Assembly: GCA_045597105.1 (NCBI GenBank)
Contig: JAZODQ010000127.1
Span: 19-64,018, forward strand
Length of the DNA: 64,000 nt
Source: Acetatifactor sp.
GTDB taxonomy: Bacteria; Bacillota; Clostridia; Lachnospirales; Lachnospiraceae
Reading direction: 5' to 3'
The notes under the pieces were generated by a model, which searched no databases, was not told where the DNA came from, and was given only the letters and a program-made list of their open reading frames with translations. Positions 26,198-44,607 of this stretch are shown in pieces (the first letter of the stretch is position 1; each line of letters begins with the position of its first letter). Both the position numbers and the translations under genes were made by a program.

Positions 26198-26314
26198 TTC
26201 CTTTCCTCCCTGAAACAGGTCGATTTTAAAACATACTCTTTTTATTTTACTCTATTTTTCACTTTTCTACTACCCCGAATCCGAAGGAATATAAAAACGA
26301 ATCCTCTTCTATCA

Positions 26315-26429: not shown

Positions 26430-26990
26430 TTACTCACTACTTCCGGTCAATACTAAAAAAGCATATTTCCCACATTGAATAATATATCCCTCTATCAAAA
26501 TCCCCAAATAAACGGTAGCCAGACACTCTAAATCCTTTTTGGTAAGTTTATATTTTACCCCACAATTCAGTCCGATTTTTTCCTGAAGCTTCGTTGCAAC
26601 AATCCTTATATTTTCTTGATGTTGTTTTAGAGTACCTGTCCATCTTTCTGATATATGTACCATATGAAAGGCATCCCGTAAAACATCCTCTATCTTACCT
26701 GCACCCCCATCTTCCAAATCAAAAGGAGGGTCATACATCTCCTGCACCTTCTTCTTTTCATCTTCTTTCAAATATGCACAGTAGTACTGTTGAATAAACT
26801 TTGGAATTGTACTTTCTGGCTTTTGATTGTCACAAAAAAACACATCCACACACATAGTCCATGGATATAATCCATTGCCCTCATGCATATAATCAAGTAT
26901 AATATCAAACAAATTCGTCAAATCATCGATTTCCGCACACTCATTTTCATCATATGCAGCTTTGTGTTCTTCTTCCAAATCCCAGTACAT
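26430..26990 (-). CDS. Hypothetical acidic protein (AT-rich islet)
   Basis: Long ORF; ATG MYWDLEE preceded by AAGGGGAAGG SD; no recognised motif. Confidence 0.7.
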   Translation of the reverse strand: MYWDLEEEHKAAYDENECAEIDDLTNLFDIILDYMHEGNGLYPWTMCVDVFFCDNQKPESTIPKFIQQYYCAYLKEDEKKKVQEMYDPPFDLEDGGAGKIEDVLRDAFHMVHISERWTGTLKQHQENIRIVATKLQEKIGLNCGVKYKLTKKDLECLATVYLGILIEGYIIQCGKYAFLVLTGSSE

Positions 26991-27010
26991 ACTAGCCTTT
27001 CCCTTTTCTT

Positions 27011-27586
27011 CTAATCGAAATTCCAACGTTTCTCAATATTGGAGGTCTCCCAGTAATGAAGTATCTGCTTATTTCGCTTTAACCTGGCATATCTTATTAC
27101 ACCCCTATTCTTTAATTCCTCAAAGATTTCATAGTATTTTTCTACAAACGAATTGTAGTCATCAAATCCCGGAATATCAAAATCCAAATTAACATCAGGC
27201 CATATATATCCATGATGCTTACTCCACTGCGGCTTATCGTCCTCCCATTCCGCATATAATGTGCCTTGCCATTTCTCACCTTTTGCCGAACGCAGTAATT
27301 TTACAGGAACTTCTCTTACGGGTTTGAATGCATGTAAAATTGTTCTTTCTCCGCTAATAAAAATACATCCGCATTTCGGACACTGATACATTGCATTACT
27401 GATATCCAATGTATCTCTCCAAAATTCGTTTATTATTTTTTCCTTATCCGTCTCGTCTGATTTGATTGCTGCTTCTATTCTGTCATAAAAATCAAACCAA
27501 TCCTGATCCGCTATGATACGCGCTTTGTATGAAATATAATCCGTTATATCAGTAACTCTATAACCGCACTCACAAAAAAAATGCAT
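27011..27586 (-). CDS. Hypothetical protein with CxC...CxxC zinc-ribbon motifs
   Basis: MHFFCECG...YQCPKCG; AAGGA SD. Confidence 0.75.
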   Translation of the reverse strand: MHFFCECGYRVTDITDYISYKARIIADQDWFDFYDRIEAAIKSDETDKEKIINEFWRDTLDISNAMYQCPKCGCIFISGERTILHAFKPVREVPVKLLRSAKGEKWQGTLYAEWEDDKPQWSKHHGYIWPDVNLDFDIPGFDDYNSFVEKYYEIFEELKNRGVIRYARLKRNKQILHYWETSNIEKRWNFD

Positions 27587-27729
27587 TTTCCTTCTCTTTC
27601 CTCTCTGACACCGTTTTCACCATTAGCCATGTATGACTTTTCATACCACAAAATCGTCCACATTCCTGCTAATATAATACCACCAAATGCGGTGCATGTA
27701 TATTTATTTCATGCCCTCCCCCCCAACGT

Positions 27730-27801
27730 AAAAAAGCTCCGGCAATGCCGAAGCTTTTTCACTTTCTTATGAGGGGGGGAAATGGTGTTTTCACACCATC
27801 T
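27730..27801 (-). ncRNA. Candidate small regulatory RNA (C-rich, csRNA/RsaE-like architecture)
   Basis: AGAUGGUGU-GAAA-ACACCAUUU hairpin, unpaired CCCCCCCUCAUAAG, terminator GCUUCGGC-AUU-GCCGGAGC-U6; own promoter. Confidence 0.65.
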
Positions 27802-27807
27802 GAATAT

Positions 27808-27881
27808 ATCATAATACTAAAATGTGTCTAAAGTGTGTTTAAATGATAAGGAAAATATAAACTCTCTTAAAACTCCTTAAA
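27808..27881 (-). promoter_or_regulatory. Response-regulator direct-repeat promoter for the candidate sRNA
   Basis: TTTAAG/TTTAAG/TTTATA at 10-bp period, then TTTAAACACA/TTTAGACACA at 11-bp period; 10 nt from the TTTAGA hexamer to TATTAT (overlapping TATGAT). Confidence 0.6.
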
Positions 27882-28784
27882 TTAAAGTAGGTCCAGGTAA
27901 ATGTCCATGGATATTTCACCGCTTCCTGCACCGGCCGCATTGGCTGCCGCAAGTGCTACCGCTTTTTTCAGCGCCACGTCGGAAGTATCTCCTGCCATCT
28001 CACTCATACAAAAGGATGCCACAGCCGTATCCCCGCAGCCCACGGTATTCATCACCTGTACAGACTTAGCCGGTGCAAAGAGACTCTGTTCTCCATCCAC
28101 ATACAGCATCCCCTCACTACCCAAGGACACCACTACTTTGCTGATACCGCCCGCTATTATTCTCCGGGCTTCTGTTATCATCTCATCACGTGTTAATACC
28201 TGTTTGCCTGCCAGATATGCCAATTCATGATGATTGGGTTTGATCATATAGGGTTTGGCCTTTATACCTATGCGCAGCGCTTCCCCGGAAGTATCCAACA
28301 GGGTCTTTACACCATAAAGCCGGGCACGTTCTATCAGCACTGCATAGATATCCATTGGAATCCCTTGGGGCAGGCTGCCGGACAATACCACCATCCCGCA
28401 CTGCTCCAATGCCCCTTCGTAGCACCGCAGAAAATGCTGTAACTCTTTCTCTGTAATAATAGGACCAGGCTCCAATATCTCCGTCACCATACCGTCACGG
28501 CTGAGAATATTGGTATTTACACGTGTCTCTCCCGAAACATTTGTGAAAAAGCATTCTGCTCCCAGCTTTTCCACCGCTTCTTCGATGAACCTGCCGTTAT
28601 TGCCACCCAGAAAACCAAGAGCCATTACCGGCATATGAAACTGTCTGAGCACCCTTGTCACATTGATTCCTTTGCCTCCGGCCTGGCTTATGCTGCTTTC
28701 CAGGCGGTTCACTTCACCCATTCGCAAACTCTTTATTTTGCAGGTTTTATCCACTGCCGGATTTAATGTTACTGTTGCTATCAT
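27882..28784 (-). CDS. pfkB: 1-phosphofructokinase/LacC family hexose kinase
   Basis: TVTLNPAVD, GGKGINV, KPNHHEL, NTVGCGDT. Confidence 0.9.
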   Translation of the reverse strand: MIATVTLNPAVDKTCKIKSLRMGEVNRLESSISQAGGKGINVTRVLRQFHMPVMALGFLGGNNGRFIEEAVEKLGAECFFTNVSGETRVNTNILSRDGMVTEILEPGPIITEKELQHFLRCYEGALEQCGMVVLSGSLPQGIPMDIYAVLIERARLYGVKTLLDTSGEALRIGIKAKPYMIKPNHHELAYLAGKQVLTRDEMITEARRIIAGGISKVVVSLGSEGMLYVDGEQSLFAPAKSVQVMNTVGCGDTAVASFCMSEMAGDTSDVALKKAVALAAANAAGAGSGEISMDIYLDLL

Positions 28785-42497: not shown

Positions 42498-43868
42498 CTA
42501 ATTCACACTTGCTTTATCAGAAAACACAATACAATATTCCGTACCTTTACCGGGTTCACTGTGAAGCTCCATCCTTGCTTCATGTTTGGATATAATATGC
42601 TTTACAATTGCCAGTCCAAGTCCTGTGCCTCCGGTGGATTTTGACCGGCTCTTATCCACCCTGTAGAAGCGCTCAAAGATTCTCTCCTGATGCTCCTTGG
42701 GAATACCGATACCGGTATCTTTTACCCGCAGCACCACGCCTTCTTCGCTGTTTTTTACACTGACAAGTACACTGCCGTCCTCATTATTGTAACGGATTGC
42801 ATTATCACAAAGATTATACAGCACTTCTTCCAGCATTTGCCTGTTACCGTTTACATAAGCCTCTTCGCCTTCCAACATGATATGCACCTTGTGCTTTTCC
42901 GCATTCATGCCAAGCATATCCACACAGGTCTCTGCAAGGGCGTACAGATTGACACGCTCCGTTACCATCTGTTCTTCTCTGCCATCCAGCTCAGACAATC
43001 GTATAATATCATTAATGAGCGTAAGCAAACGATTGGAACTCTTACGAATACCATGGGCAAACCTGGTTACATCCGCTTCCGATGCCATGCCTGTCTCGAT
43101 CAGCTCCGCATAACCGGATATGGAAGTCAGTGGTGTTTTTAGCTCATGGGACACATTCGCCGTAAACTCCTGACGCATTTTAGCATTTTTCATAATATTT
43201 TCATGCTGGTCCCTGATTGTGTCAATAAAAGGCTGTAACTCCATGTAGCTCGAAACTTCTTCCGCATTATCCCAATTTTCTGCCAGCCTGTCTATGGGTG
43301 CAATCAGCTTAGCCGTCATAAAATGCACAATACTCATGCAAACTATAATCAGTATTACGATTACCAGCACCAGACTGGGAATGGCCGATACAAATATACT
43401 GAAAATGCTGCCGGCTTCCTTACTGATACGTAATACATTCCCGTCACTTAACAGCAGGGCATAATAGTAGGTATTCTCAGCCAAAGTCTCAGAATGACGA
43501 ACCGACCTACCCTCACCTTCTGCATATGCCTGAACGATCTCCGGCCTGAGTCCGTGATTGTCCATAGTAACACTGTCTGCATGACTGTCATAGAGCACCT
43601 TACCCAGGGTGTTTACAATCGTAACACGCAGTTCATCCGTTAAAATACGGTCAGAAAATTGCCCGGATTCTTCTGTAAATACAGCAGAATCCACCACATC
43701 CTCTATCTCTGTCTCAACATAATATTTAAGCAGGCGGGAAACTGTATGTAGTTCCTCCATAACCTGCTTTTCATACAAATCATGATATACAATTGTAATC
43801 AGTAATGTGGTAAATAGAATGGCGAGTACCGCTATAGATACCAGCATACGATTCAATCTTTTTTTCAT
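42498..43868 (-). CDS. phoR: PhoR-like sensor histidine kinase
   Basis: NVSHELKTPLTSI, NLCDNAIRYN, FERFYRVDKSRS, GGTGLGL; within pst locus. Confidence 0.88.
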   Translation of the reverse strand: MKKRLNRMLVSIAVLAILFTTLLITIVYHDLYEKQVMEELHTVSRLLKYYVETEIEDVVDSAVFTEESGQFSDRILTDELRVTIVNTLGKVLYDSHADSVTMDNHGLRPEIVQAYAEGEGRSVRHSETLAENTYYYALLLSDGNVLRISKEAGSIFSIFVSAIPSLVLVIVILIIVCMSIVHFMTAKLIAPIDRLAENWDNAEEVSSYMELQPFIDTIRDQHENIMKNAKMRQEFTANVSHELKTPLTSISGYAELIETGMASEADVTRFAHGIRKSSNRLLTLINDIIRLSELDGREEQMVTERVNLYALAETCVDMLGMNAEKHKVHIMLEGEEAYVNGNRQMLEEVLYNLCDNAIRYNNEDGSVLVSVKNSEEGVVLRVKDTGIGIPKEHQERIFERFYRVDKSRSKSTGGTGLGLAIVKHIISKHEARMELHSEPGKGTEYCIVFSDKASVN

Positions 43869-43923
43869 AACACTCTCCATTCCTGCGCCGAAAATGAGGT
43901 ACAGACACAAATTGGGAATCACA

Positions 43924-44607
43924 CTAACTATTCATGATATAGCCTACGTTTCGAACCGTTTTTATCAAACTGCCTTCTTCCTTTAACTTCTGTCGCAGGG
44001 TTTTGATATGCATATCCAGGGTCCTGGACTCGCCTTCAAAATCAGTTCCCCAGACCCGGTCCAGTATCACCTCTCTGGTAGTAACAATTCCCGCATTGGT
44101 CATCAGTAGCTTAAGCAACTGATATTCCTTATAGGTCAGCTCGCAGGGCTGTCCGTTCACAGTCACTGCGTGCTTCTCCGTATTTAATTCAATATTTCCC
44201 AGCCTGAAAATCTTATCCCTGTCCTCAGGTTTGACACTTCTGCGCAGCATGGCTTTTACTCTGGATATCAATTCCATAACACCAAAGGGCTTGGTCATGT
44301 AATCATCTGCACCGATATCCAATCCTTTCACCTTATCCATTTCTGTTGTTTTGGCTGTAACCATGATAATCGGCACAAGCACAGTATCCTTACGCAGCCT
44401 GAGCTTCTTAACAATGGCAAGTCCGTCTTCATCCGGCAGCATCACATCGAGAAGGACCAAATCAGGCACCTTGCGCTCCAGCTCTGCATAAAACTCTGCC
44501 GCAGTGGTAAACCCTTTTACCTCATAACCCACATTTGTGAGTGCGAAGGTCTCTATCTCCTGTATATTTTTATCATCCTCAACAACATAAATCAAAGACA
44601 TCTGCAT
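43924..44607 (-). CDS. phoP: PhoP/PhoB-like response regulator
   Basis: OmpR-family receiver plus winged helix (SRTLDMHIKTLRQKL, TVRNVGY). Confidence 0.88.
   Translation of the reverse strand: MQMSLIYVVEDDKNIQEIETFALTNVGYEVKGFTTAAEFYAELERKVPDLVLLDVMLPDEDGLAIVKKLRLRKDTVLVPIIMVTAKTTEMDKVKGLDIGADDYMTKPFGVMELISRVKAMLRRSVKPEDRDKIFRLGNIELNTEKHAVTVNGQPCELTYKEYQLLKLLMTNAGIVTTREVILDRVWGTDFEGESRTLDMHIKTLRQKLKEEGSLIKTVRNVGYIMNS

Follow-up and report, generated by a model that had tools for sequence, protein, structure and literature searches.

A conserved C-rich small RNA gene of Lachnospiraceae that shares a promoter box with htrA and a two-component regulator gene: a probable RNA arm of the envelope-stress response

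Introduction

The RsaE/RoxS RNAs of the Bacillales (RF01820) use unpaired C-rich motifs to target G-rich Shine-Dalgarno (SD) regions, are controlled by ResD/SrrA and Rex and act on central metabolism, with no known link to htrA. The LhrC RNAs carry several short UCCC motifs, and their C-rich single-stranded motifs pair with ribosome-binding sites. In Listeria monocytogenes these multicopy envelope-stress sRNAs, LhrC1-5, depend on LisRK, which also induces htrA (PMC6305404). The csRNAs of Streptococcus (ccnA-E), which are under the control of CiaRH, block ribosome-binding sites by pairing (Marx et al. 2010; PMC3091779). CiaR has the recognition helix VVEVYVSK[VI]RKKL and its repeat, NTTAAG-N5-TTTAAG, lies 10 bp upstream of the -10 (PMC3091779). 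A direct repeat is also bound by PhoP of M. tuberculosis, in this case TCACAGC-N4-TCACAGC, with 7-bp repeats and a 4-bp spacer (PMC4832192).

A literature search of incomplete coverage found no prior description of the Lachnospiraceae sRNA presented here, nor any paper on regulatory RNAs or stress circuits of Lachnospiraceae. Members of this family are among the most abundant gut bacteria of humans and animals. The sRNA gene was followed up in a 64-kb stretch of DNA from Acetatifactor sp. (the whole of the analysed stretch, 64,000 nt, is called the window below), in the genome to which it belongs and in relatives throughout the family.

Results

A pfkB-family kinase gene (Pfam PfkB) occupies positions 27882-28784 of the window on the minus strand, ending with the stop codon TAA at 27884-27882, and lies upstream of the sRNA. 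The stretch from 27730 to 27801 on the same strand is very likely a real sRNA gene of about 72 nt, with the following parts:

27730..27801, minus strand: sRNA gene of about 72 nt, matched by covariance model R1 (72.3 bits, E 5e-14)
27801, minus strand: predicted 5' end, at A27801; the predicted 3' end falls within the U-tract
27801-27780, minus strand: 5' hairpin AGAUGGUGU-GAAA-ACACCAUUU, with a 9-bp stem and a GAAA loop, in the minimum-energy and centroid folds
27779-27763, minus strand: seed CCCCCCCUCAUAAGAAA, a putative anti-SD tract that stays unpaired in all members folded
27762-27728, minus strand: intrinsic terminator by folding, with a 16-bp stem, a 3-nt loop and U6 (U-tract at 27735-27730)

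An earlier note on this DNA had described the hairpin, the C-tract, the terminator, upstream repeats and a TATTAT hexamer, all of which are present in their places on the minus strand. It had further proposed an independent, unannotated C-rich sRNA gene, and this proposal is upheld, as conservation and covariation extend over the RNA with its unpaired C-run and terminator, and Rfam has no match to it.

The 5' end was placed from the conserved AGAUAG start, 7-8 nt past the -10, with an accuracy of a few bases; the start is uncertain to that extent because TATTAT and TATATT both overlap the -10 hexamer TATGAT. Folding of 82 nt yielded -34.5 kcal/mol compared with -13.7 +/- 2.9 for shuffled sequences (z = -7.26), and none of 200 shuffles folded as well. 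The terminator is potentially bidirectional, judging from its A-run/U-run symmetry. There is no ORF of at least 20 aa on the sense strand within the unit. A search of the genome with R1 identified a single copy of the sRNA, and no second copy was found there.

With Rfam 15 at gathering thresholds, the families for RsaE, LhrC and streptococcal sRNAs included, there was no match in the entire 64-kb window. Under permissive settings (E <= 10) positions 27400-28000 gave only sub-threshold matches aligned to the terminator, the best having 30 bits against a cut-off of 60. STnc380, rli61 and SpF25 were rejected as terminator-driven matches of this kind.

On comparative grounds the putative sRNA is a member of an uncatalogued RNA family that is widespread in Lachnospiraceae. 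BLAST with a 166-nt region detected homologues together with their promoters in about 21 of the 24 genomes from the same genus, and sRNA and promoter are conserved together in about 140 genomes, well beyond what chance would give. Matches to R1 were found in 137 of the 151 genus genomes (74 of the 76 of high quality) and in 49 of 151 genera of Lachnospiraceae, while the 137 genomes surveyed from other families of the order gave three weak matches only. Within the genus the gene is often in tandem, with 2-3 copies 180-260 bp apart.

The sRNA was aligned with 21 genus sequences, in all of which (21/21) CCCCCUCAUAAG is invariant, and in a second alignment with 46 homologues. In the 46 aligned members 97.6% of the cells are paired and 15 of the 19 pairs change on both sides, and none of the controls (shuffles and slid registers) comes near the observed pairing. 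Compensatory changes affect all 12 modelled pairs of the terminator (12/12), and in the 5' hairpin, where 98.7% of the cells are paired across the family, both sides have changed in three of seven pairs. The hairpin of most species is nearly letter-identical (AGAUAGU...ACUAUCU). In the window and its nearest relative it is altered by compensatory substitutions to AGAUGGU...ACCAUUU, and this divergent hairpin variant is what the window contributes to the sRNA family. Members from different genera all fold into hairpin, free C-rich tract and terminator, and in all members folded the two stem-loops flank the unpaired tract. The seed CUCCCCCCUCAUAAG is nearly invariant across the family, and the C-run varies from 5 to 8 among relatives.

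The suggestion that the segment is complementary to an SD followed by an AUG, in the correct order, does not hold for the family. A CAU 5' of the C-run occurs only in the sub-clade of the window, where it lies inside the 5' stem, and nearly all relatives have CUAUCU instead.

Could the conserved unit encode a tiny peptide? In most relatives an AUG in the hairpin loop would open an eight-codon frame, MNSLSPPS, which ends at the UAA of UCAUAAG, and by direct reading of the sequences AUG and UAA are in frame in the six-C copies. A C-run of 5 to 8 breaks this frame, however, and the copy in the window has a GAAA loop without an AUG. Moreover, there is no SD, and the AUG is about 9 nt from the predicted 5' end, in or beside the hairpin stem. 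The peptide was rejected because the length of the C-run varies, and is regarded as extremely unlikely; the covariation of the stem fits the preferred reading, an RNA.

The genomic slot of the sRNA is conserved as well, being bounded by murE and, at the opposite end, by recJ, secDF or pfkB. The neighbour is murE in 31 of 61 loci; within the genus it has the same orientation as the sRNA, and in many genus genomes it lies 42-130 nt downstream on the same strand. Such synteny would suit a cis-acting leader or attenuator of murE, or a mere 3' UTR and terminator of whichever gene precedes the unit. Against this, other genera have the sRNA in reverse orientation between the same two genes (recJ and murE), a separate murE promoter (TGGTAG/C-N17-TAAAAT) is retained past the sRNA terminator, and in the window two other ORFs separate the sRNA from murE. 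Additional copies are found in tandem and also unlinked, the sRNA promoter is kept whichever gene lies upstream, and no alternative antiterminator fold was seen among the folds examined. The inversion, the separate murE promoter and the intervening ORFs therefore disfavour a leader or 3' UTR, which is considered very unlikely. The sRNA is, on the sequence evidence, a putative unit with its own promoter and terminator, independent of the neighbouring genes.

Some further features of this neighbourhood may be recorded. The two ORFs between the sRNA and murE (27011-27586 and 26430-27026, minus strand; 191 and 198 aa) match nothing in Pfam or NCBIfam and look like a lineage-specific insertion. In the murE upstream regions of relatives, and at about 26200-26290 in the window, the promoter block (A/G)GGGTGGTAGAAA-N9-10-ATAGAGTAAAATA is strongly conserved; its conservation exceeds the two hexamers and the block may hold a regulatory site of its own. 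The G-rich motif that follows many sRNA terminators is the -35 region of murE.

The region between pfkB and the predicted start of the sRNA contains the following promoter features:

27881-27876, 27871-27866 and 27861-27856, minus strand: TTTAAG, TTTAAG and TTTATA, with a 10-bp period
27861-27844, minus strand: A/T-rich upstream element TTTATA...TTATCA, in register in most genus promoters
27841-27834 and 27830-27823, minus strand: putative activator box, the direct repeat TAAACACA-N3-TAGACACA, which has an 11-bp period and stops 9 nt short of the -10
27813-27808, minus strand: -10 hexamer TATGAT, assigned from the family register (TAnnAT, whose spacing to the box and to the AGAUAG start is constant)
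27816-27811 and 27808-27803, minus strand: overlapping alternative -10s, TATTAT and TATATT

A consensus scan favours TATATT, which has a TG upstream, as the -10. About 70 homologous upstream regions, anchored on the conserved AGAUAG start, have in common the sequence (G/A)(G/A)ACACA-nTTT-(G/A)(G/A)ACACA-TTT on the 3' side of the A/T-rich element, then six variable bases, TAnnAT and 7-8 nt to the start, regardless of the upstream gene. The direct repeats of the earlier note stand in part: the 11-bp ACACA repeat is the conserved promoter element, but the TTTAAG repeats are specific to the window and have no visible role. The latter had been likened to a CiaR-type box, a comparison that fails on their 10-bp period, their position about 65-80 nt upstream of the start and their absence from the homologous promoters. 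The A/T-rich element reads TTT(T/A)AGA-N5/6-TTAGAA in relatives and could be an UP element or additional weak sites for the regulator.

The two RACACA half-sites are 11 bp apart, with 9 nt between the second one and the -10. By direct reading neither half-site stands at 17 +/- 1 nt from the -10, and there is no TTGACA-like hexamer at that distance. Taken as -35 elements the half-sites would have spacers of about 11 and 22 nt to the -10, which leaves the promoter without a usable -35. The sequence has instead the class II layout of PhoB/OmpR-type promoters, in which repeats with a 10-11-bp period take the place of the -35, about 10 bp from the -10.

A position weight matrix (PWM) was built from 59 sRNA promoter boxes and scanned on the genome from which the window derives. 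The sRNA promoter itself was the top site, at 34.4 bits, followed at 17.1 bits by a site 82 nt upstream of the gene for a 450-aa Trypsin_2+PDZ protein, i.e. HtrA. In 29 of 30 genus genomes the top PWM match of the entire htrA locus, on both strands, is at this same upstream place. The htrA box of the genus has the form (A/T)(A/T)CACA-N6-nnCACA-AWT-N6-TATACT, and 26 of 29 other genera have the simple pattern CAYA-N7-CAYA-N8-11-TAnnnT ahead of htrA. This pattern occurs at 38 sites in the window's own genome, and the intergenic ones include the promoters of the sRNA, of htrA and of one response regulator gene, encoding the protein designated P0001. The spacing from box to -10 is identical at the sRNA, htrA and regulator promoters.

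P0001 is a 227-aa Response_reg+Trans_reg_C protein encoded on another contig than the window (C12:16056-16736; L126). It is very widely distributed, being single-copy in 36 of 40 genus genomes at 73-83% identity and in 144 of 150 genera at 61-79%. Upstream of its orthologues the sequence TTCACA-N5/6-nACATA-N9-TAnnnT was found at 23/30 loci within the genus and at 23/29 in other genera, the chance expectation being about 0.004 per 400 nt; 7/30 and 6/29 loci, respectively, have no box directly upstream of the regulator gene. In most loci across the genus the regulator gene is immediately preceded, in the same orientation, by a conserved ORF of about 190-215 aa without a family match (e.g. L126:825-1412:+), and where the regulator gene has no box of its own the promoter may be in front of this ORF. 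Among the 12 OmpR-type regulator genes in the 86%-complete assembly, only that of P0001 has the box.

Most relatives encode a kinase of about 490 aa (HAMP-HisKA-HATPase_c) directly after the P0001 orthologue. In the present genome the orthologous kinase gene (C12:24345-25853; L159) is 7.6 kb downstream of P0001, behind inserted sugar-utilisation genes; the genes between the two are of the HTH_3-TPR, AraC-type, MFS_2 and GH2 kinds. P0001 scores under every equivalog cut-off of NCBIfam. Among solved structures it is closest to RegX3, M. tuberculosis PhoP and MtrA, and its recognition helix is TIDTHVKKLRSKL.

The earlier idea of a circuit from response regulator to sRNA gains support from the occurrence of the same box at htrA and at a single conserved OmpR-family regulator gene. 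Control of the sRNA by a two-component regulator that binds the box is likely on this sequence evidence. P0001 is most likely that regulator; its binding to the box is predicted solely because autoregulation is common among regulators. The earlier note had pointed to a nearby PhoP, which is taken to be the separate OmpR-type regulator and histidine kinase pair at about 42591-44154 on the minus strand of the window. This pair (~42.6-44.2 kb) was rejected as the regulator of the sRNA, there being no RACACA box upstream of it.

The CACA-N7-CACA repeat might be read by an alternative sigma factor or an unrelated DNA-binding protein instead of P0001, and about one fifth of the regulator loci have no recognisable box. 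Tandem repeats of 11-bp period placed 9 nt from a normal TAnnnT -10 nevertheless fit winged-helix regulators, a -35 role would be a misfit with spacers of about 11 or 22 nt, and only one OmpR-type regulator gene, that of P0001, carries the box. In addition, solved relatives of P0001 bind TCACA-type direct repeats (PMC4832192). A reader other than P0001 is accordingly judged unlikely, and P0001 is retained as the candidate.

The box also marks other promoters of this genome. The sequence TTATCACAAATTTATCACA-N9-TATACT at C6:84667 (L125:1267-3009:+) is 69 nt upstream of the gene for a 580-aa Cthe_2159 carbohydrate-binding-domain protein, and a weaker box at C120:42281 (L127:3080-3715:-) lies upstream of that for a 211-aa protein without a family match. 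These two genes are possible extra members of the predicted regulon. An intergenic direct repeat at C49:10933 (L128), GTTCATAATTTGTTCATATT, also has an 11-bp period and precedes TATACT. It looks like the box of a different response regulator and resembles HssR-type repeats.

Discussion

The sRNA gene, its structure, its conservation and the promoter box that it shares are computed results. The presence of this box at the sRNA, at htrA and at one conserved two-component regulator makes it probable that the sRNA serves an envelope-stress response as its RNA arm. In the model that follows we infer which protein recognises the box, what signal induces the system, how the sRNA pairs and with which targets.

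According to this model, the sRNA would be a regulatory RNA of about 72 nt that is transcribed on its own and acts in trans. Its -35-less promoter would be driven by a response regulator occupying the two RACACA half-sites, spaced by 11 bp, in the class II geometry of PhoB/OmpR. The regulator would most likely be the family-wide OmpR-type P0001, working with its HAMP-HisKA kinase; the box also lies at the promoter of the regulator gene itself and at that of the HtrA serine protease gene. The sRNA would then be made while this system, which probably responds to envelope or secretion stress, is active. Between the 5' hairpin and the terminator the invariant C-rich tract would be kept single-stranded, and this tract could pair with the G-rich Shine-Dalgarno regions of target mRNAs and thereby lower their translation. 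The proposal as a whole, a P0001-driven, stress-induced, anti-SD sRNA acting in trans, is considered reasonably probable.

The anti-SD action taken by itself is plausible, with the balance tipping slightly in its favour. Target prediction, another check proposed in the earlier note, produced no signal above shuffled seeds in the genome concerned. Over 2294 crude translation-start regions of this genome there was no pairing excess, with 43 regions pairing with the seed at -18 kcal/mol or better compared with 28-62 for the shuffles, and a scan for G-run sites in the same genome likewise revealed no enrichment over shuffled seeds. The top individual candidates were gpr, the best of them, an M56 BlaR1-like protein, a YARHG lipoprotein and an ABC ATPase. 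As a conserved target gpr was rejected, having an 8-G SD here and no G-run in any of the relatives checked (29/29). The start region of murE gave only ordinary pairing energies with the seed.

The best non-self partner of the seed genome-wide, at -27.8 kcal/mol, is GGGGGGGAGGG, located at 27714-27726 on the minus strand, 5 bases past the sRNA terminator, with the mini-frame ATG-AAA-TAA behind it. A G-run also stands close behind the terminator in the nearest relative (L009), but not in the family overall. This sequence may be there by chance, or it may serve as a cis anti-seed when transcription reads through.

A different mode of action under the same regulator would be the binding or titration of a protein (Hfq-, KH- or CsrA-like) at the C-run or the AAGAAA tract. 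Conservation extends far beyond what a 6-7-nt anti-SD seed needs, since UCAUAAGAAA and the rest of the 18-nt tract are kept, as is the hairpin loop UGAUGAACUC, and predicted target sites are not in excess relative to shuffled seeds, both of which would agree with protein binding. On the other hand, a hairpin, a single-stranded C-rich tract and a terminator form the classic layout of pairing sRNAs in Firmicutes, and the gene neighbourhood points to no protein partner. Protein binding is thus considered rather unlikely, and pairing with mRNAs remains the preferred mechanism.

At the level of the family, it is tentatively suggested, with somewhat less than an even chance of being right, that nearly all Lachnospiraceae share an ancient two-component system for envelope or secretion stress. 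Its core regulon would consist of htrA, its own operon and one or more C-rich sRNAs, the murE-anchored RNA being the post-transcriptional arm, and it would have arisen independently of CiaRH-csRNA and LisRK-LhrC. If this is true, the combination of stress kinase, HtrA and anti-SD sRNA would be a recurrent design of envelope homeostasis in Gram-positive bacteria, and an independent case would be added to the 'two-component system + HtrA + anti-SD sRNA' design of streptococci and Listeria. Three linked parts are now available, namely an sRNA family missing from Rfam, a defined promoter box and a candidate regulator/kinase pair that is also tied to HtrA. These make the envelope-stress response of Lachnospiraceae directly approachable in cultured members, and the covariance model and box motif can be used to annotate hundreds of genomes.

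Among the systems described, RsaE/RoxS resembles the Lachnospiraceae sRNA in its unpaired C-rich tract, but the sRNA has no match to its Rfam model. The likeness to M. tuberculosis PhoP is confined to the promoter: the period is 11 bp, the core is TCACA-like and PhoP is among the closest solved relatives of P0001, whose binding here is predicted, whereas the regulon (htrA, the sRNA and the regulator's own gene) differs.

The LisRK-LhrC system is similar in that a two-component system is linked to both the sRNA and htrA, here through the shared box. The sequences of the RNAs are unrelated, the regulator box differs, and LhrC has several short UCCC motifs compared with one long C-run followed by UCAUAAGAAA in the Lachnospiraceae sRNA.

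The closest parallel in design is with the csRNAs. Both combine a stem-loop at the 5' end with a terminator and an unpaired C/U-rich tract, whose anti-SD role is putative in the present sRNA, and sibling copies are often several. Both have -35-less promoters with the direct repeat of an OmpR-family regulator about 10 bp from the -10, although binding of the regulator is a prediction here. Co-control of htrA and of the regulator's own operon, indicated in Lachnospiraceae by the shared box, completes a likeness that is one of design and not of homology. The present sRNA comes from a different class, Clostridia, and has no homology in sequence or structure with the csRNAs, nor any Rfam match even at E <= 10. 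Its box is RACACA-N4/5-RACACA in place of NTTAAG-N5-TTTAAG, the recognition helix of P0001 is TIDTHVKKLRSKL and that of CiaR VVEVYVSKVRKKL, and the anti-AUG (CAU 5' of the anti-SD) is not conserved. Membership of the CiaR-dependent csRNAs was rejected on the differences in promoter repeat and regulator helix. By design, then, the system is a counterpart of the CiaRH-csRNA and LisRK-LhrC-htrA circuits, while by membership it is neither of them, because box, regulator helix and RNA sequence all differ.
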